From the IMG/VR virus record IMGVR_UViG_2698536570_000009, positions 1-42,963 of that record: a stretch of 42,963 nucleotides of DNA; one strand, given 5' to 3'. Positions within the stretch are counted from its first letter, which is position 1. Each line of letters starts with the position of its first letter. The notes below the pieces were generated by a model. It worked only from the letters and a program-made list of their open reading frames with translations, had not been told where the DNA came from and did no database searches. The DNA is from a virus (lineage: Duplodnaviria > Heunggongvirae > Uroviricota > Caudoviricetes). Below are positions 16,373 to 42,963 of the stretch, one piece after another. The position numbers and the translations under genes are program-made.

Positions 16373-16731
16373 ATGAATACCGCATTAGCCTCCCGTGGCC
16401 GCCGAGCAACAACCGCTACTACCGGCATAACCGCGGGCGCACGCACATCAGCACAGAGGGGCAGGCGTACCGCGACAGTGTCGCCAGAATCATCAAAGAC
16501 TCAATGCTGGATATCGGCCTGGCTACACCCGTGAAAATCCGCATTGAGTGCCACATGCCGGATCGCCGTCGCCGTGACCTGGATAATCTGCAAAAGGCCG
16601 CTTTTGACGCACTCACCAAAGCAGGTTTCTGGCTGGACGATGCTCAGGTCGTTGATTATCGCGTTGTGAAGATGCCCGTTAACAAAGGTGGAAAGCTGGA
16701 ACTGACAATCACCGGGCTGGAGGCCGTATGA
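16369..16731 (+). CDS. rusA: RusA Holliday-junction resolvase
   Basis: Near-identical to recalled RusA sequence ('[21 protein letters not shown]', '[46 protein letters not shown]'). Confidence 0.9.
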
Positions 16732-16864
16732 CATTTGAATCCTGTTTTTCCGATCACCTCCGCGTTCGCTGGCAGCGGCTTCGCTTATACCACTTTCCCG
16801 GCTCTGTGCTAACGGACTACCGGATACTGAAGAATTACGTGAAAACTTATGCTGGAGAAGCGCT

Positions 16865-17959
16865 ATGAACCTTGAAAACACAGTGAAATACCACTTCGCT
16901 AAATCCACACTGATTAGCGATTCTCCGCGCGCTACCGCCTCCGATTCACTGACCGGTACCGACATAATGGCTGCCATGGGCATGACGCAGGAACGCGCCG
17001 CAATGGGTTACAGCGCCTTCCTCGGCAAGATGGGCATAAGCAATAACGACCGGGATCGGGCGATCGGTCTGCTGGCTGAGTACGCGATGACAAAATGCGA
17101 CAAGGTTGCCGCACTGCGTAAGCTCGGTGCCGCGGTTAAACCTCAGGTGATGCACCAGTTGGCCACCTTCGCTTTTGAGGACTATTCCCGCAGCGCTGCC
17201 AGCGTGAAGCAGTGCGATTGTTGTGACGGTCAGGGGGTCAGGACCTGTATTGCTTCTCTGGAGCTTAAACCAGGCAAAATGCTTGCCCGACTCACGCGGC
17301 AAACCATCTGCACCTCCTCACCGAAGCGTGAAGAAATCATTATGACCAACGAATGGTTTTCTGACCGCCTTTGGGTATTCAAACTTACCGGAACGGCCAA
17401 AGCAGACCGGCTTCTTGAGATTTTTGCCTATGCCCGGCGTCGCTATGGCATTGAGCTGTTCGTCATAGATAACCTGGCTAAATGTGGTTTAGACGAAGAA
17501 GACTACACAGGTCAGAAAGACTTCATCGATACCCTTTGCGACTTCAAGAACGAACATAACTGTCACGTCCTGCTGGTTACCCATGCCAGAAAAACAAACG
17601 ACTCCGCTCCAACCGGAAAGATGGACGTAAAAGGCACCGGTGCTTTAACGGATATGCCCGACAACGTGATGGCCGTCTGGCGCAACATTCCCCGTGAGCT
17701 GGCGCAGAGAAAAGCGGACCGTATGGGTTATGAGAGCCTCGACAAAGACGAACAGGCCGCAATCAATCTTCCTGCCTCAATGATTCGCTTGTTGAAGCAA
17801 CGAGAGGGCGAAGGGTGGATCGGTGACATCGGAGCTAATTTCGACTCTCGCTCTCACCAGTTCCTGGAAGGCGAGAAAAAACCATTTAACTACCTGGTCG
17901 GTAAGCCGCAAAGCGAGTTTGATCTCGAGTGGGAAGCCAGCAACGTAACGAGGGTTTGA
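16865..17959 (+). CDS. chimeric ORF: lambda-Q-like N-terminal region (about aa 1-135) fused in frame to the C-terminal half of a DnaB-like RecA-fold helicase (Walker B present, no Walker A)
   Basis: N-terminus 'KYHFAKSTLISDSPRATASDSLTGTDIMAAMGM...ATFAFEDYSRSAA...CDCCDGQG' parallels recalled lambda Q; C-terminal 'LFVIDNLAKCG...HVLLVTHARKT...DVKGTGALTDMPDNVMAVWRN' parallels DnaB motifs ('LIVIDYLQL', 'DLRESGSIEQDADLIMFIYR'). An intact, different Q allele follows immediately. Confidence 0.6.
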   Translation: MNLENTVKYHFAKSTLISDSPRATASDSLTGTDIMAAMGMTQERAAMGYSAFLGKMGISNNDRDRAIGLLAEYAMTKCDKVAALRKLGAAVKPQVMHQLATFAFEDYSRSAASVKQCDCCDGQGVRTCIASLELKPGKMLARLTRQTICTSSPKREEIIMTNEWFSDRLWVFKLTGTAKADRLLEIFAYARRRYGIELFVIDNLAKCGLDEEDYTGQKDFIDTLCDFKNEHNCHVLLVTHARKTNDSAPTGKMDVKGTGALTDMPDNVMAVWRNIPRELAQRKADRMGYESLDKDEQAAINLPASMIRLLKQREGEGWIGDIGANFDSRSHQFLEGEKKPFNYLVGKPQSEFDLEWEASNVTRV

Positions 17960-17962
17960 GAT

Positions 17963-18799
17963 ATGAAACTTGAAGCTTCACTAAAACACTTTAGCCCTCA
18001 GGGTATGCACATCAGCGACGACGTGAAAGGAACCTCTCCGGACCGCCTTACAGGAACAGATGTAATGGCGGCAATTGGCACCACCAGCAGCCGTGCGCGC
18101 TTCGGACTGGCGGCGTTCTTCGGTAAAGCGGGAATCAGCAAAACGGATGAACAGCTCGCAGTTCAGGAGCTGGCGCGATATGCGATGGATGTCGCACCGA
18201 AGAATGTTCGCAAAGCAGCTGGTGGGCAGTTCGGATGGTGCATGCAGATGTTGGCACAATTTGCCTTTGCTGATTATTCACGTTCGGCGGCTACAAGCGT
18301 GACGTGTCACAGCTGCAGTGGTACCGGACGAACAACCCGCGAACAGATTACCCGCAAGGTTTCGTACCCATGGGGTAAAGCTCCATACTGGGCCTGCCGC
18401 TCTCGTGCTGTTCGACCGTCTGACTGGGAGCAGTGGATGGAGGTAACAGAGGTTGTACCGGCGGTCTGTGATGCTTGCGAAGGCAAGGGAACGATCAGCG
18501 CCCGTTGTCGTTGCGGCGGTAAAGGCGAGGTTCTAGACCGCAAGGCCACAAGCGAGCGCGGCGCGCCGGTGTTTAAAACCTGCGAGCGCTGCAGCGGAAA
18601 TGGATTTTCTGCGGTGCCGTCTACCGCAGCCTATAAAGTGATACTGAAGCGCGTTCCGGATCTGCACGTCAGAACATGGACTCGCAACTGGAAACCGTTT
18701 CTTGAGGCGCTGGTAAGCATTTGTCAGCAGGAGGAGGGAAACGCTGCAAGAGAATTTCAATCTGCAACCAGTTTAGGCGAAGAAGGTGACGAAATTTAG
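17963..18799 (+). CDS. late antiterminator Q (intact, 278 aa, extended zinc-finger region)
   Basis: Q-family blocks ('LTGTDVMAAIG', 'AQFAFADYSRSAA', Cys clusters 'CHSCSGTG', 'CDACEGKG', 'CRCGGKG', 'CERCSGNG'); followed by the candidate pR'/tR' unit. Confidence 0.85.
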   Translation: MKLEASLKHFSPQGMHISDDVKGTSPDRLTGTDVMAAIGTTSSRARFGLAAFFGKAGISKTDEQLAVQELARYAMDVAPKNVRKAAGGQFGWCMQMLAQFAFADYSRSAATSVTCHSCSGTGRTTREQITRKVSYPWGKAPYWACRSRAVRPSDWEQWMEVTEVVPAVCDACEGKGTISARCRCGGKGEVLDRKATSERGAPVFKTCERCSGNGFSAVPSTAAYKVILKRVPDLHVRTWTRNWKPFLEALVSICQQEEGNAAREFQSATSLGEEGDEI

Positions 18800-18818
18800 C
18801 ATTATTACGACATAAGGC

Positions 18819-18848
18819 TTGATTTTGTCCGAAGTTGTCGTGTATGCT
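18819..18848 (+). promoter_or_regulatory. candidate late promoter pR' (-35 TTGATT, 18-nt spacer, -10 TATGCT)
   Basis: Sigma70-like hexamers directly downstream of Q and about 40 nt upstream of a terminator, as for lambdoid pR'/tR'. Confidence 0.35.
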
Positions 18849-18889
18849 TCTAATCATGCGGAGTAACGCCTGAAAGATTTCAACAATAA

Positions 18890-18909
18890 GCCCCTTGCGG
18901 GGCTTTTTT
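18890..18909. terminator. rho-independent terminator (tR'-like; also terminates the convergent minus-strand moron)
   Basis: GCCCC-TTGC-GGGGC hairpin followed by T6; an A-rich tract precedes it. Confidence 0.6.
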
Positions 18910-19321
18910 ATGGCAGCGAGTTAACGAAAGAACTGAAAAGGGCCTTATCTTTATTGCTAATTGATTTTTTCAAATGTAGTTGATGATTTAAAGGTTTAAA
19001 GTTTTCCTTTGTGAGATATATACATGCTTTCTCAAAACGATCCTGAAGGAATTGAAATCTTTCATTCAGCCTGGAAACTTTTAATCCTAATGACATGACC
19101 TTCTTCTCAGGAATATCGTCAGGATTGCAATTATTGAGTTCTTCCAGCACAAGGCGAATATCTCTTTCGAAGATTAGCGCTATGTTATAATCGTTGAGGA
19201 GGCATTCAGGATTACGAACAATGCCAATTACTTCGTCGATGAATTGTGGTTTTACATTATCCTCAGCATTTTCATCTTCGTTATCGGAAGGTTTTTGAGA
19301 CATAACATTCGACAACTGCAT
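18908..19321 (-). CDS. hypothetical moron protein in an AT-rich island, convergent with Q (137 aa from the SD-supported start; ORF-track version extends to 19528)
   Basis: AT-rich coding region; SD 'AGGAAG' 4-5 nt upstream of the ATG at 19319-19321; the longer 19528 start lacks an SD and overlaps the tRNA-like gene; acidic N-terminus, no family recognised. Confidence 0.45.
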   Translation of the reverse strand: MQLSNVMSQKPSDNEDENAEDNVKPQFIDEVIGIVRNPECLLNDYNIALIFERDIRLVLEELNNCNPDDIPEKKVMSLGLKVSRLNERFQFLQDRFEKACIYLTKENFKPLNHQLHLKKSISNKDKALFSSFVNSLP

Positions 19322-19506
19322 TTCTTCCTTGGTTTTCCTTCTGGGAAGTAAAACTTTTCCATCTCCTAAAGCAGCCATACGTTTCAAAGCTTGACTCCCG
19401 GCTCGGCCAACTACTATCGCAGGCTGAGAGGTCTGTAAAATGCAATCCCGAAACAGTTCGCAGGTAATAGTTAGAGCCTGCATAACGGTTTCGGGATTTT
19501 TTATTT

Positions 19507-19581
19507 GGGTCAGTCGTATAAAGGTCATTACGGAAGGCTGTTAACCTTCTTATCGTGGTTCGAGTCCACGCTGTCCCGCCA
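19507..19581 (+). tRNA. tRNA-like gene, Asn(GUU)-like anticodon arm, non-canonical 5' half (possible pseudo-tRNA)
   Basis: 3' half is canonical (T-arm CGTGG-TTCGAGT-CCACG, acceptor plus GCCA); anticodon stem-loop GAAGG-CUGUUAA-CCTTC; acceptor stem has one T-T mismatch and the D-stem is weak. Confidence 0.45.
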
Positions 19582-19584
19582 AAT

Positions 19585-19660
19585 TCGCCTGTAGCTCAGA
19601 GGAAAGAGCAACCGCCTTCTAAGCGGTTGGTCGCTGGTTCGAATCCAGCCAGACGAGCCA
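19585..19660 (+). tRNA. tRNA-Arg (anticodon UCU)
   Basis: Cloverleaf: D-arm GCTC-AGAGGAAA-GAGC, anticodon arm ACCGC-CTTCTAA-GCGGT, T-arm GCTGG-TTCGAAT-CCAGC, 3' CCA; one C-A mismatch in the acceptor stem. Confidence 0.7.
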
Positions 19661-20165
19661 AATTCTAATCTGGTGTAATTCCACCATTTCGAGGATGTCC
19701 TCGGTATGGTTACAATCCCGCCCCATCCCCTAGCTGTGTGGGATTTACCGCATTTGTGATGATGCCGATATGGTGCATAACTGACTCGCGATTAGGTTGT
19801 GTCGTCAGCTCCACGAAACGGAGTCCATAACAGCAAAAGCCACTACCATATTGCGCATAGTAACGGAATGACGCATACGGAATAGTGGAGTGGTTTTTGC
19901 GTTGTGGTGAATGTTCTGATGGCGTCGTAAAGCGATAGCCGTGAATGCCGGATAGCAGCACCGGCCACCACAAACCAAACCCACTACCTGGGACCCTTCG
20001 GCCAGAGAGCCGACATTGCCTTACCCTCATCTTCCTGGCTTGTCGCCAGGTTTTTTATCCCAGGCCCCGGGAACCATCATCGACACGCCTACTTGTTAAA
20101 TCGTCCCGAGGGCCTGCCCCCTTTCAAACACACAGCCCCCGCTTTTAAGCCGGAGGTTAGAGACT

Positions 20166-20507
20166 ATGAAAATGCATAACGATCCCCACTCCTGGACGGA
20201 GTTTATCGAACTACTCCACAGTTGGTGGCGTGGCGAAACGCCGATGGGTGCCGTATTGCTATCGGTTGTCATGGCCGCCATGCGAATCGCTTACGGCGGT
20301 GGCGGCTGGAAGAAAATGCTCCTTGAGGGGGCAATCTGCGGAGCTCTAACCCTTACCGCTGTGTCAGCTCTTGATTACTTTAACCTTCCACAGTCTCTGT
20401 CGATAGCTATCGGCGGCGCGCTAGGGTTTGTTGGCGTAGAGCAGGTTAAGGTTATGGCTTCCCGGGTGTTTAATTCTCGCTTTGGAGGCGGTGATGCAAA
20501 TCAGTGA
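20166..20507 (+). CDS. lambda-family holin (S-like) with dual-start Met1-Lys2-Met3
   Basis: 113 aa with three hydrophobic segments and a charged C-terminus; pattern parallels recalled lambda S; SD GGAGG upstream; first gene of the lysis cassette. Confidence 0.8.
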   Translation: MKMHNDPHSWTEFIELLHSWWRGETPMGAVLLSVVMAAMRIAYGGGGWKKMLLEGAICGALTLTAVSALDYFNLPQSLSIAIGGALGFVGVEQVKVMASRVFNSRFGGGDANQ

Positions 20508-21433: not shown

Positions 21434-21838
21434 ATGCAAATAGATCAAGAATACCTTAAAGGTTTGCTCGAGGCTTTCGAGGCATCGGATTCACCTGATA
21501 CCGATATTATTCGATTAAATGATTTAGGGTTCAATTGTGAAACTGACACATTTGTGTTTCATATGCGTTTGCTTGAGGATAGAGGGCTGATTATCAGGAG
21601 TGATGGAGAGCCCGGCTTTGGTGCTATTCAGTCTTTAGACGGAATGACTCACTGGGCTGTAATGCCCTTGCGATTGACCGCGATGGGGCATGACTTCTTG
21701 GATGCTCTCCGTAACAAAGAGGTTTGGGCAACATTAAAAACCGGATTCAAAGATGCCAGTATGGGCACGCTGATGACAGTTTCGAAGGAGCTGTTTAACC
21801 GAGCTCTTGCTAAGCAACTTGATAAAATGTTCGACTAA
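21434..21838 (+). CDS. hypothetical moron protein after the lysis cassette (134 aa)
   Basis: AT-richer than neighbours; own terminator directly after the stop; no family recognised. Confidence 0.5.
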   Translation: MQIDQEYLKGLLEAFEASDSPDTDIIRLNDLGFNCETDTFVFHMRLLEDRGLIIRSDGEPGFGAIQSLDGMTHWAVMPLRLTAMGHDFLDALRNKEVWATLKTGFKDASMGTLMTVSKELFNRALAKQLDKMFD

Positions 21839-21859
21839 CCGCCTACGGGCGGTTTTTTA
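21839..21859 (+). terminator. rho-independent terminator
   Basis: CCGCC-TACG-GGCGG hairpin followed by TTTTTTATT immediately after the stop codon. Confidence 0.6.
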
Positions 21860-21914
21860 TTGTCAACTTTATGAGCAAACTGATCTTAATTACTGTAACT
21901 AGGTGGTCAATGAT

Positions 21915-22556
21915 ATGGCAACGCTTAAGGACCTTTCCAGTCAGTTAAGACAGCTGCAGAAGCAAATACCGTTTGCGACTGCCCAGGCTATGACTAAAGT
22001 GGTTCGCCAGATAGAAGCGGCCCAAAAAACAGCATTTGAGCGGAAGCTGGATAATCCAACACCTTTTACAGTTAAATCGGTAGGGTCAGTTGGTGCCAGG
22101 AAAAACAGCCTTCGTGCGAAGGTGTTTGTTCGTGATACTGCTGCTGGCTACCTTGAACCCTTCGAGTTCGGCGGAGCGCACAAGCTTAATGGTGGTGCTT
22201 TGCTTAACCCGAAAGACATAAAGCTTAATAAATACGGCAACCTGCCGCGTAATAAGCTCTCTCAGCTCAAAGCAAAGCCAAACGTATTTATTGGTGACGT
22301 TGGTGGCGTGAATGCCGTGTGGCAGAGAAAAAAGCCGAAAACCAAAAAAGGGAAGAAACGGGCAAAACGTTCTCCGAACGGCACGCGCAGAGACAAGATT
22401 AAGCAACCTGCACCAAAATTGCTTATTCGGTTTGGAGACGCGCTTCCAGTCAAACCAACGCTCGGCTATATGGACAGGGCAAACACCATGGCCAACGCAT
22501 TGTTACCCTCAGCGCTGCACCAGGCGATTGCTGAGGCGATCAGCTCGGCCAGATAG
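21915..22556 (+). CDS. hypothetical phage protein with Lys/Arg-rich segment (213 aa)
   Basis: ATG 21915 with SD AGGTGG (the ORF-track start 21903 is a GTG); basic stretch 'QRKKPKTKKGKKRAKRSPNGTRRDK'; sits just upstream of the terminase-site repeats. Confidence 0.5.
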   Translation: MATLKDLSSQLRQLQKQIPFATAQAMTKVVRQIEAAQKTAFERKLDNPTPFTVKSVGSVGARKNSLRAKVFVRDTAAGYLEPFEFGGAHKLNGGALLNPKDIKLNKYGNLPRNKLSQLKAKPNVFIGDVGGVNAVWQRKKPKTKKGKKRAKRSPNGTRRDKIKQPAPKLLIRFGDALPVKPTLGYMDRANTMANALLPSALHQAIAEAISSAR

Positions 22557-34137: not shown

Positions 34138-36067
34138 TTCTTTTGATTTTGAGCTGGTGGCCAGCGACCAGGTTAGCGAGGCTATAGACCGCATTAATGA
34201 GGCTGTCCGTGACCTGGAGCCGAAGCTAGATAAAACTAAAGAAGGGCTCAAGTTAGGCGGTCAGGAAACAGCCGACGGACTGAGCGGTTTTATTTCTCGC
34301 CTCGAGAATATGTCGAAGAGCGCGCGGGATAACGTGCAGTTTATTGGCGACATGGTTCCCCCACTGAAAATGGTGGGGGAGCTATCTGGTAAGTTGGGTT
34401 TACTCGGTATTGCTGGTGCTGCAGGGTACGGGCTTAAACAGGTCGCCTACGGTTTTCGCGAAGCGTCCAGGGAAGCGTATAACCTGGACGTTTCATCAAA
34501 AAATGCAGGTATGCGTGTAGGCGATTTTTCCCGTCTTGCTGGAGCTATGCGCATCCTTGGCGCTGATAGTGAAAGTGCAAATGCTTCTATTGGTGGCATG
34601 GCGAAAACGCTGAAAGAAGCCGCCAGTGGCGCGAATGGGCAGGTACTTGGTGCGCTCGCACAGATCGGTGTTCAGATACAGAAAAATAATGATGGTTCTG
34701 TTGATACGCTAAAAACATTACAGGAGATAGCTCGAGTCTTCCCTTCGTTGCGGCCTGAGCAACAAAAGTCCGTAGCCGATGCTCTTGGGATGACGCCAGA
34801 AATGTTGGCGTTAATGCGTGAAGGTGAGCGCATGAAAACGCTGCTGGCTAAATCTGACGAGTTTGGGCTAACAATTGATCCTGAACTTAATAAAGAACTA
34901 AGCGACATCAATGGAACGATGAATGAACTTAGCGCCTCCTGGGATGGGCTGTGGCAACGTTCAAAAAATAAAGCGCTAAAGACATTACTCTCTGATGGAT
35001 CAGTTAAAGATGGGTTGGAAGGTGTTACCGATCTGTTCACTAATGGTGATTTTACTGGGCTGTCTCATGCTCTCGGTTTTATCAACAGCAATGATGCTGA
35101 GAAACTACGGCGCATTCAGAACGATAAGGAACTTTATAACAGCTTACCCCGCAGTGAACGTGGGCAGGTTGACGCGGGTTTCATGACTGATGCTGTAAGA
35201 AAGCGGTACGATGCGAATTACCGCGCGACCGATTCTGCGATTCAATTGCAGAATGACTTATCCGCTATCAGCCAGCCACAATCCAACGTTGCACGCGGCA
35301 ATGTTCCTTACGGGGAAACAAGGAATAACGCAATTGGCTTCAGAAATAATAATCCCGGTAATTTGAGGGTTGCAGCAAACGCAACGGGTAAAAATGGCGG
35401 ATTTTCTACCTTTGCGAATGATGCCGACGGAAGAACTGCAATGGCGAGACAGCTGATGTTGTATGGTGACAGGGGGAATAATACTCTGGATGGGATTATT
35501 CATACCTATGCTCCGCAATCAGAGAATAATACTCGTGCATATATTGACTCCGTCTCAAAAGCCACTGGATATGGAGCCAAAGAGCAAGTAAATCTGCACG
35601 ATCCGGAAACATTAAAAACGATAATGGCAGCCATGATTAAACATGAGAATGGCGCACAACCTTATACTGAGGAACAACTGCTAAACGCCATCCAGACCGC
35701 CATTACTGATGATCGGTGGTCAGGGAAGAGAAATCCGGATGTGCTGGCCCAGCAGCGGTATGACATTATCTCTGGATCACGCGGCGTGGATCAAGAACCC
35801 ACGATACTCAGAACACAACAAGGGAAAAGTGATGCTTTCCCTGACAGTCCGGTGAACGAACAATCCTCTGGAGACGGAATCATTCAGCCAGAGTTGCAGC
35901 GTTCGGGACCAGATAAGACCCTTACCGATAATATTACGCGCTCCTTCATGAGTGCGATGGCTGAGCAAAAATTGAAACTTGAGATCACCATGATCGACGG
36001 GAAGGGAGGGCGAAGGGAATACAGCGCCGAAGATGGCGGAAGAATAACGTTACCCATGTCTTACTGA
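34130..36067 (+). CDS. tail tape measure protein
   Basis: 645 aa; helical Ala/Leu/Gly-rich N-terminal two-thirds; position after chaperone; C-terminal region with distinct motif 'GFRNNNPGNLR'. Confidence 0.8.
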   Translation: MSNSFDFELVASDQVSEAIDRINEAVRDLEPKLDKTKEGLKLGGQETADGLSGFISRLENMSKSARDNVQFIGDMVPPLKMVGELSGKLGLLGIAGAAGYGLKQVAYGFREASREAYNLDVSSKNAGMRVGDFSRLAGAMRILGADSESANASIGGMAKTLKEAASGANGQVLGALAQIGVQIQKNNDGSVDTLKTLQEIARVFPSLRPEQQKSVADALGMTPEMLALMREGERMKTLLAKSDEFGLTIDPELNKELSDINGTMNELSASWDGLWQRSKNKALKTLLSDGSVKDGLEGVTDLFTNGDFTGLSHALGFINSNDAEKLRRIQNDKELYNSLPRSERGQVDAGFMTDAVRKRYDANYRATDSAIQLQNDLSAISQPQSNVARGNVPYGETRNNAIGFRNNNPGNLRVAANATGKNGGFSTFANDADGRTAMARQLMLYGDRGNNTLDGIIHTYAPQSENNTRAYIDSVSKATGYGAKEQVNLHDPETLKTIMAAMIKHENGAQPYTEEQLLNAIQTAITDDRWSGKRNPDVLAQQRYDIISGSRGVDQEPTILRTQQGKSDAFPDSPVNEQSSGDGIIQPELQRSGPDKTLTDNITRSFMSAMAEQKLKLEITMIDGKGGRREYSAEDGGRITLPMSY

Positions 36068-41421: not shown

Positions 41422-42522
41422 ATGCTCCGAATCGGGCAAGTCGAAGCCACTGCAACGCAGGATGGCAAATATACTGATGGAAGTGTTGCTGGTGGTATTG
41501 CCGCAACGAGGCTGCGGGCAGCAGCGTTTAATGCCATGCAGGAAGAGTTAGCGCATATCGTAGAGTCAGCAGGATTGGCGCTCGACATTAACGATATGAC
41601 TCAGGTTTTAAAAGCCATTCAAAAACTCACACTGAGCCGTGCAAACCCATTTGCCGATATCAAATCAGATGGTGCAGCGGCGATTTCTACGGCTCTCACA
41701 AACCTTGGTCTTATAGAAGCGCTAAAAAACAAACAACCCCTCAGCGATACGCTGACAAAACTTTCCACGCTGGGGCCGCAAACTAACGCTGATCAGGTTC
41801 TGTTTTTTTCTGGTAAAAATGTTCCGGCAGTATCAGCGCTGACGCTCGCTGGCCGTCAATTTATCAGTAAAGAAAATGTTCCTGATATGCTTCAGTATCT
41901 GACACTGGGGGACGGCTCAGGACGTTTACTTGGAGTGCAGGTATTCGGTACTTCGGGGATGTACTACAAATCGCCGGGCGTAAAAAAAATTATTGTGGAA
42001 GCCGTTGGCGGTGGTGGTGCCAGTGGCAATTTATCAGCAACAGCCCAAAATAACTGTGGCGTCAGCCCAGCTGGTTCTCCTGGAGCCTACGGGAAGGCTT
42101 TTTATTACCAGAATATACCGGAGTCTGTACCTGTAACGATTGGCTCCGGTGGTGTTGGTGGTGCGGGGTCAGGTGGTTCAGGTGGTGATGGCGGTCAGAC
42201 AAGTTTTGGTTCATTACTAGTTTGTCCTGGCGGAAAAGGCTCACAACAACGTCAGCAGGTTCCTCCGTTCTCGGGTGGAAGTGCCACCGAAGCCTCACCA
42301 CCAACAGGGTCCGGAATTCTGTTTCACTCTGTTTCACGATCAAATTTATGTGGGACACTTGGACTTGGTGATGATCAGGCGATTGGCATTGAAAGCACCA
42401 TAACAACGAATCTCGGGATATATGGGACAGGTGGGACAGGGAAATACAATCCAGCAAACAGTGGACCGTCAAGAGGCAATGACGGTTCTCAGGGTTATAT
42501 TATTGTGTGGGAGTATCAGTGA
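41422..42522 (+). CDS. tail fiber protein with Gly-rich C-terminal domain
   Basis: Conserved fiber N-terminus 'MLRIGQVEATATQDGKYTDGSVAGG'; C-terminal glycine-rich repeats 'GGGGASG...SGGVGGAGSGGSGGDGG'. Confidence 0.75.
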   Translation: MLRIGQVEATATQDGKYTDGSVAGGIAATRLRAAAFNAMQEELAHIVESAGLALDINDMTQVLKAIQKLTLSRANPFADIKSDGAAAISTALTNLGLIEALKNKQPLSDTLTKLSTLGPQTNADQVLFFSGKNVPAVSALTLAGRQFISKENVPDMLQYLTLGDGSGRLLGVQVFGTSGMYYKSPGVKKIIVEAVGGGGASGNLSATAQNNCGVSPAGSPGAYGKAFYYQNIPESVPVTIGSGGVGGAGSGGSGGDGGQTSFGSLLVCPGGKGSQQRQQVPPFSGGSATEASPPTGSGILFHSVSRSNLCGTLGLGDDQAIGIESTITTNLGIYGTGGTGKYNPANSGPSRGNDGSQGYIIVWEYQ

Positions 42523-42734
42523 TGAATAAAAATCAAATTTATGCGGTTGTAAATAATGGTGTTGTCGTCAATATCGCCGTGTGGGATGGGGAATATGAGT
42601 GGAAGCCAACGGATGGCATTGCTGTACTGGCTGAAGGAGGTGTTGGTATCGGCTGGTTATATGATGGTGAAAAATTCATTAAGCCTTCCTTAAAACAAGA
42701 CGACGTTATACTTACTGAGGGGAGAGCCAGTTAA
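42522..42734 (+). CDS. small protein downstream of tail fiber (70 aa), possible fiber accessory protein
   Basis: ATG overlaps the fiber stop; too short for a typical Tfa chaperone; followed by a terminator. Confidence 0.4.
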   Translation: MNKNQIYAVVNNGVVVNIAVWDGEYEWKPTDGIAVLAEGGVGIGWLYDGEKFIKPSLKQDDVILTEGRAS

Positions 42735-42747
42735 TACACAGAGTGCC

Positions 42748-42775
42748 GGAGGGGGCAAACACCCTCCCATCTTTT
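42748..42775 (+). terminator. rho-independent terminator (moderate)
   Basis: GGAGGG - loop - CCCTCC hairpin followed by ATCTTTT. Confidence 0.45.
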
Positions 42776-42924
42776 AATTTCTGCATAAAAAACAAATAAA
42801 TATGTAATAACTTAACGTTTCTATAACTATAGTTAGTAATAAAATAATGATGACTTTTTGATGCGTTTAGAGATAAGATAATTACACATTTTTCTTCGAG
42901 TTTCTGAGGAGTTAAGTTGAAATG

Positions 42925-42963
42925 AAGCCCTGCAAAGCCCTGCAAAGCCCTGCAAAGCCCTGC
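42925..42963 (+). repeat. tandem decamer repeat (AAGCCCTGCA, about 3.9 copies) immediately after a start codon; truncated by window end
   Basis: ATG at 42922 preceded by SD GAGGAG (about 10-nt spacing); repeats continue to the last base of the window. Confidence 0.8.

Follow-up and report, generated by a model that had tools for sequence, protein, structure and literature searches.

A 5′-truncated, most likely inactive remnant of a conserved accessory gene next to an exchanged Q module in the prophage of Escherichia coli AW1.7

The window analysed here, a stretch of 42,963 nucleotides (nt) recorded as IMGVR_UViG_2698536570_000009 in IMG/VR, is a prophage of Escherichia coli AW1.7 (NZ_CP073624), and contains on its minus strand an open reading frame (ORF) of 206 codons at 18908..19528, which runs toward the gene for the antiterminator Q (17963–18799). 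The original prediction, made from the sequence alone, had presented this ORF as a moron gene, and the open frame and its convergence with Q were both found as described. The feature is, however, very probably a recent 5′-truncated and most likely dead remnant of a conserved prophage accessory gene, left as a by-product of a Q-module swap. This accessory gene, here called gene X, corresponds to PHROG 7003 and encodes a protein of about 316 amino acids (aa), with WP_016240226.1 as its full-length form, and only residues 149–316 of the full-length architecture are encoded in the window.

Truncation of gene X at position 19415

The elements that make up the ORF are as follows.

18908..18910, minus strand: native stop codon (TAA) of gene X, read from the sequence, inside the T-run of a terminator; relatives have the same arrangement
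18911..19414, minus strand: 3′ remnant of gene X, residues 149–316 of a 316 aa family, from tblastn and the PHROG 7003 profile; corresponds to the AT-rich island
19415..19416, no strand: recombination junction, ...CCAACTACT up to 19415, then ATCGCAGGCTGAGAGG... from 19416, from three-way DNA alignment and BLAST end points
19416..19528, minus strand: spurious 5′ extension of the ORF, codons 1–38 (19415–19528), antisense of tR′ and of the 5′ end of tRNA-Asn

Alignment of the ORF with PHROG 7003 covered profile positions 123–308 of 309 only (E = 2.3e-49). Homologues aligning to the coding part, obtained from a collection of 5.8 billion proteins, were 313–320 aa in length with the exception of one 130 aa protein (P0008), and the closest homologue (P0001, 97% identity) aligned to the C-terminal 82% of the ORF only. 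When P0001 was compared with the whole window by tblastn, its residues 149–316 were located at 19414–18911 (97% identity), with no match for residues 1–148 anywhere in the window. At the DNA level, 18908–19415 was 100% identical to the full-length gene of E. coli FAM21845, and the lack of even a single mismatch (0 mismatches) indicates that the truncation is recent, and that the undecayed frame carries no selection signal.

Three-way DNA alignment showed that the sequence to the left of 19415|19416 is that of FAM21845-type prophages, and the sequence to the right that of HK446 and lambda. Residues 1–39 of the ORF matched the antisense of HK446 35002–35118 only, and residues 9–39 the antisense of lambda 44689–44781, where they are 93.5% identical to the frame of 'orf-64', a dubious annotated antisense ORF across tR′. 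We know of no evidence that lambda 'orf-64' is a real gene, and unlike its lambda counterpart, the frame here is joined by chance to the C-terminal half of X. Since the junction happens to be in frame, the open frame extends past it by about 38 codons, which lie antisense to tR′ and tRNA-Asn, and this gives rise to the 206-codon ORF and to the 191 aa coding sequence (CDS) annotated by RefSeq (18908..19483, WP_225858608.1). Both the RefSeq start (19483) and the start in the ORF track (19528) are located in this spurious extension, and neither ATG is preceded by a Shine-Dalgarno (SD) sequence.

Neither of the two starts considered in the original prediction, at 19528 and 19321, is the native one. 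The start at 19528 does overlap the 5′ end of the tRNA-Asn gene in antisense orientation, but codons 1–38 are non-coding antisense. The start at 19321, giving a protein of 137 aa, is indeed preceded by AAGGAAG at a distance of 2 nt, but it corresponds to M180 of the full protein, and AAGGAAG represents the codons of an internal Lys-Glu-Glu, with K177 and E178 being at least 90% conserved and E179 invariant. As four out of 11 full-length homologues have T, E or A instead of M180, a conserved internal start at this position was rejected. Read as a complete gene, both models are artefacts of the in-frame junction, with homology covering 18911–19414 only. The RefSeq CDS and the two predicted models are chimeric frames, and thus unfit as a candidate defence or conversion gene.

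Over residues 149–316 the remnant shows 97–100% identity to WP_016240226.1-type proteins, and like the corresponding genes it is convergent with the same Q and has its stop codon in the same terminator. It differs from them by the absence of residues 1–148, the start codon, the SD sequence and the conserved upstream motif, and by its in-frame fusion to the antisense of tR′ and tRNA-Asn.

The remnant also differs from the flanking phage DNA in base composition. The GC content of 18908–19415 is 0.376, compared with 0.515 for the window and 0.552 for the Q gene (z = −3.3), and only 0.4% of equal-sized segments are as AT-rich. The predicted AT-rich island at about 18910–19330 is therefore present, although its right edge is at 19415 and not at 19330, and its description as foreign AT-rich cargo between Q and the lysis genes agrees with both composition and position.

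An imported Q module and its late transcript

The remnant is located at the right end of a 2.18 kb block, with the following features in and around it.

16865..17235, plus strand: 5′ remnant (about 124 codons) of the resident Q, matching Pfam Antiterm residues 23–111 only; a pseudogene in RefSeq
17236..19415, no strand: imported block of 2.18 kb with a primase/helicase 3′ fragment, Q, the putative late promoter and terminator, and the 3′ 53% of X
17963..18799, plus strand: intact antiterminator Q of the 82/21 type (PF03589, E = 2e-53; PHROG 127), 99.6% identical to the FAM21845 Q
18819..18860, plus strand: late-promoter-like element (TTGATT, 18 nt, TATGCT, then the TTCTAATCATGCG box), conserved in 11 Q-X intergenic regions
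18888..18909, no strand: hairpin terminator (GCCCC-TTGC-GGGGC followed by T6; hairpin at 18890–18903), from a terminator scan and folds of both strands
19416..19506, plus strand: 3′ half of a lambda-type 6S late-leader RNA with tR′, 99.4% identical to HK446 and equivalent to lambda 44689–44781
19507..19581, plus strand: tRNA-Asn (GTT), from ARAGORN, Rfam (tRNA, 55 bits) and RefSeq
19585..19660, plus strand: tRNA-Arg (TCT), from ARAGORN and Rfam (tRNA, 66 bits)

Five genomes (FAM21845, LR536430, MB06232, MS 115-1 and LR536431) showed 98.6–99.9% identity to the AW1.7 prophage from 17900/17963 up to about 19415, followed by divergence; of these, FAM21845 was inspected for an intact X. AW1.7 and FAM21845 are 99.9% identical over 17710–19415, and the two base differences between them in 17900–19415 are both inside Q. 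At the left junction (17235|17236; ...GACGGTCAGGG, then GGTCAGGACC...) the sequence continues as the 3′ part of a primase/helicase gene, and the left flank matches WEM25-type prophages (99.3% identity over 16502–17235, 100% over 16700–17235), in which Q is intact (260 aa). On the right side, 19416 is also the exact position from which other E. coli prophage regions match the tR′/tRNA-Asn module. As the two flanks and the sequence between them are of different origin, 17236–19415 represents an imported block. Comparison with related prophages, which had been proposed as a check on the original prediction, found intact X genes of 313–320 aa in relatives; of 5,426 complete E. coli genomes, none but the two AW1.7 assemblies had the truncating junction.

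The left junction displays a GGTCAGG microhomology. Positions 16865–17959 form a single open frame of 364 codons, which fuses about 124 codons of the second Q (PF03589) to the C-terminal part of the primase/helicase (AAA_25, PHROG 239), and both pieces are marked as pseudogenes in RefSeq.

We propose that the imported block took the place of the 3′ part of the resident Q and of its late promoter, in one event or in several. A working Q would have arrived with its cognate promoter, which would allow late transcription to stay functional, and X would have been cut at codon 148/149 as collateral, with the loss of its promoter-like motif, SD sequence and ATG. The remnant would then not be expressed as a protein and have no function of its own, and its only transcription would be in antisense, as a passenger of the Q-antiterminated late transcript, which must read through the terminators at 18890–18909 and 19447–19502 and a terminator-like site at 20034–20050. 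At this locus, both ends of a Q-module exchange between lambdoid prophages can be placed with a precision of a few bases, with an imported block that brings Q along with its putative cognate late promoter, and that lands at a module boundary (19416) common to many E. coli prophages.

The spacer between Q and X contains an element with the consensus TTGAYT, 18 nt, TATGM and then the conserved TTCTAATCATGCG box, which is shared by the window and the loci L001, L002, L008, L009, L013, L022, L024, L026, L030 and L034, with the Q proteins of these 11 loci being 70–99.6% identical. A simple σ70 scan did not report the element at 18819–18860, so that its promoter function, as the late promoter cognate to this Q, with the first late terminator, can only be inferred. 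The TTCTAATCATGCG box resembles a −10 element in the initially transcribed region, and may be a σ70-dependent pause or engagement site for this type of Q.

The hairpin at 18890–18903 was called by the terminator scan on the plus strand only, while on the minus strand it comes immediately after the stop codon of X and has a weaker U-tract (UUAUUGUU). It is conserved in diverged relatives, with a compensatory change in the stem (GCCCC/GGGGC versus CCCGC/GCGGG). The original prediction of a terminator shared by Q and the minus-strand gene is accurate with regard to the geometry, with the stop codon in the T-run of this hairpin, but on the plus strand the hairpin would end a short leader from the late promoter (equivalent to tR′), and not the Q gene.

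To the right of the block, the tR′ stem (19447–19454 with 19488–19495) is followed by a U-run at 19497–19502, with a predicted RNA fold of −36 kcal/mol (z = −4.85). Homology to HK446 begins at 19413–19416, about 110 nt downstream of the annotated HK446 pR′, and there is no lambda-type pR′/qut ahead of the 3′ half of the 6S leader. The region therefore resembles the lambda 6S/tR′ module (lambda 44689–44781; HK446 35003–35174) in having the long tR′ hairpin and U-run, followed by tRNA-Asn as in HK446, but differs from it in that only the 3′ half is present, with pR′, qut and the first ~100 nt replaced by a block with a different Q and its own putative promoter.

The tRNA-Arg gene is separated from the holin gene by about 500 nt of non-coding DNA (19660–20165), in which a plus-strand terminator-like hairpin with a T-run is located just upstream of the holin gene (20034–20050). 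With this additional hairpin, the late transcript would have three terminators to pass within 1.2 kb. A minus-strand ORF of 106 codons at 19710–20030 has no Pfam match. A search of 18700–20200 against Rfam gave no match with a meaningful score other than the two tRNAs.

The lost part of gene X and the coding capacity of the remnant

In 11 diverged full-length loci, gene X is preceded by a GTGATTAAATATCAA motif, similar to an extended −10 element and located about 45 nt ahead of the start codon, and by a AAGGGAAG SD sequence, with the protein starting with MIFIK. Neither the GTGATTAAATATCAA motif nor the SD sequence and ATG of X are present in the window, and a simple consensus promoter scan of 18700–20200 did not detect a promoter-like site on the minus strand.

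The deleted part of the protein contains its most conserved residues. In an alignment of 57 sequences the invariant columns are Y43, C52, C57, H61, G64, G78, C81, G82, F86 and N286, and all of these except N286 fall in the deleted residues 1–148. The pattern of C52, C57, H61 and C81 suggests a putative zinc site. A first AlphaFold2 (AF2) run on 11 close homologues gave a mean predicted local distance difference test score (pLDDT) of 59.7, and the 57-sequence alignment resulted in a model of X with a pLDDT of 95.8 and a predicted template modelling score (pTM) of 0.84. In this model a β-rich N-terminal domain is followed by long central helices, a β-hairpin (168–174 and 206–213) that is interrupted by an acidic linker, and a confidently predicted C-terminal helical bundle (approximately residues 217–313). 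The cut at residue 148/149 lies inside the central helical region (helices 134–145, 147–150 and 152–164), and not at a domain border.

Several points weigh against the interpretation of the feature as a dead remnant. No stop codon interrupts the frame, and the in-frame ATG at 19321 has an SD-like AAGGAAG ahead of it, so that a C-terminal fragment of 137 aa could be translated if a minus-strand transcript exists. The recency indicated by the 0 mismatches makes the lack of decay uninformative either way, and the absence of a promoter is judged from a simple scan for consensus sites and from one lost conserved motif, both at the level of sequence. The exact 191 aa protein is found on 5 contigs (the commonest full-length form of X on 522), meaning that the allele extends beyond a single assembly.

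The remnant could accordingly still be a working gene, with the 137 aa protein from 19321 or a chimera of 191 or 206 aa being made in the lysogen and having a retained or new function, for example as a C-terminal helical domain on its own or as a dominant-negative version of X. The open frame with AAGGAAG located 2 nt before the ATG at 19321, the confidently modelled helical bundle at residues ~217–313 and the 191 aa RefSeq CDS are in agreement with this, but the native promoter-like motif, SD sequence and ATG are gone and no minus-strand promoter-like site was found in the region scanned, the SD-like string consists of conserved internal Lys-Glu-Glu codons in front of a Met that varies in 4/11 homologues, and the most conserved domain with all invariant Cys and His residues is missing. 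The cut inside the central helices, and in the 137 aa form the additional loss of the strand at 168–174, also speak against it, and the absence of mismatches to the full-length gene provides no selection signal; we consider a working gene very unlikely.

Still less probable is the original model, in which a protein of 137 or 206 aa is the product of a complete and autonomous moron that has a promoter of its own and functions in lysogenic conversion or defence. It accounts for the AT-rich composition, the convergent orientation, the terminator hairpin at the end and the classic cargo position, and the parent family is moron-like elsewhere, but every intact homologue is 313–320 aa and the DNA upstream of 19415 is non-coding late leader and tRNA, and the junction alignment and tblastn refute the model at this locus. 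An interruption of the frame in close relatives had been named as an outcome that would speak against a gene; the comparison turned out the other way round, with most close relatives being intact and longer and the copy here being broken, next to three frameshifted loci (L009–L011).

We give hardly any credence to an assembly artefact in which the real genome has a full-length X, for which we found no supporting point other than the general proneness of mosaic prophage regions to mis-assembly, and which was rejected because two AW1.7 complete-genome records agree (NZ_CP073624 and NZ_CP072539, 100% identical over 17900–20200), with the 191 aa product also being listed under a separate protein accession and present on 5 contigs.

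Gene X in related prophages and features elsewhere in the window

The X gene of related lambdoid prophages is complete and stands alone, between a Q of the 82/21 type and the tRNA and lysis genes. Related loci were found in metagenome contigs, IMG/VR, phage vB_EcoS-611R1 and E. coli genomes, and in 31 out of the 33 loci with sequence on that side, X is convergent with the same Q family, with a gap of about 110–140 nt. The Q proteins across these loci are 70–99.6% identical and the X proteins 58–98%, and most loci have tRNA genes just beyond the X start, on the Q strand. Gene X is transcribed toward Q, and is thus antisense to the late operon. If the element behind Q is the late promoter, Q-modified RNA polymerase must read antisense through all of X to reach the lysis genes, and Q-dependent late transcription could silence an intact X upon induction.

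In FAM21845 the intact X (316 aa, WP_016240226.1) is followed by genes for tRNA-Ile, tRNA-Thr and tRNA-Gly. Upstream of the Q-X block of FAM21845 lie a short ORF that represents a helicase fragment and a complete holin/holin/GH19 lysis cassette (L004, 2434–4060); with this cassette upstream of Q, the FAM21845 prophage region has two lysis cassettes and a rearrangement of its own upstream of Q. In three metagenome contigs (L009–L011; 2226–3172 in L009), X is frameshifted into ORFs of 184 and 130 aa, which could represent a real pseudogene lineage or a sequencing error. The 130 aa protein P0008 was considered as a natural short form of X and rejected, as it is the downstream half of such a frameshifted copy (184 + 130 aa).

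Morons between Q and the lysis genes of lambdoid phages include stx (933W/H-19B), the lc porin gene (PA-2) and nmpC (DLP12). The feature described here shares with these the foreign composition and the location between Q/pR′ and the lysis genes, and its intact relatives are stand-alone with a promoter-like motif and a putative terminator hairpin; it differs in that the X product is unrelated to toxins or porins, and in that the copy here is truncated and has lost its upstream region. The stand-alone arrangement, the upstream promoter-like motif and the putative terminator hairpin at the end support a moron-like nature of the parent gene in relatives.

A profile search of 1.84 billion representative sequences resulted in 511 clusters (50% identity, E ≤ 1e-3), nearly all of about 300 aa. 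Many distant members align to profile positions 1–100 only, indicating that the N-terminal domain is the core of the family. These distant members are stand-alone genes in accessory contexts, such as a Chimaeribacter member near a SymE toxin gene and a P4-like primase, a member on a marine contig adjoining an integrase, and a Parasulfuritortus member adjoining HicAB. Profile and structure searches had been suggested alongside the original statement that no family could be recognised. That statement is superseded by the match to PHROG 7003 (E = 2e-49), but scans of the ORF, full-length homologues and 57 family members against Pfam, NCBIfam and PADLOC gave no meaningful match, and searches of the PDB and BFVD with the X model gave no structural neighbour. 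For PADLOC-DB v2.0.0, the ORF, P0001 and P0012 had no match at E ≤ 1 and the 57 family members two isolated weak matches only (E > 1e-3), while a profile search of PDB sequences gave noise only (E ≥ 0.07). A literature search with the protein accessions, the PHROG identifier and the AW1.7 prophage found nothing relevant.

The X family is uncharacterised and widespread, and in enterobacterial prophages it is tightly linked to the 82/21-type Q and antisense to the late leader. Its distribution fits a self-contained accessory protein, possibly with a role in exclusion or defence. Describing the feature as a candidate uncharacterised conversion or defence gene is thus fair for the parent family, but this copy is truncated. 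It is conceivable, although we consider it doubtful, that the intact parent X represents a new single-gene factor for phage exclusion or defence, in which case the AW1.7 allele would be a natural loss-of-function control; a variant in which the truncated fragment itself is expressed and active is much less likely. The intact allele (for example WP_016240226.1 of FAM21845) is the version worth testing, with AW1.7 as a natural truncated comparison, and it is reasonable to regard the intact family as a moderately interesting experimental target and interest in the AW1.7 locus as low.

The only other region of the window with an AT-richness comparable to that of the remnant is at its right end (42374–42963, GC ~0.39), just after ORFs for a Mu Gp48-like protein and a glycine-rich domain in the tail fibre region. 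A second AT-richer patch (GC 0.38–0.45) lies immediately past the lysis genes, at 21434–21838 and 21903–22556, and contains a DUF2513 gene and an ORF of 217 codons without a Pfam match. This patch (21434–22556) may be a further cargo slot.
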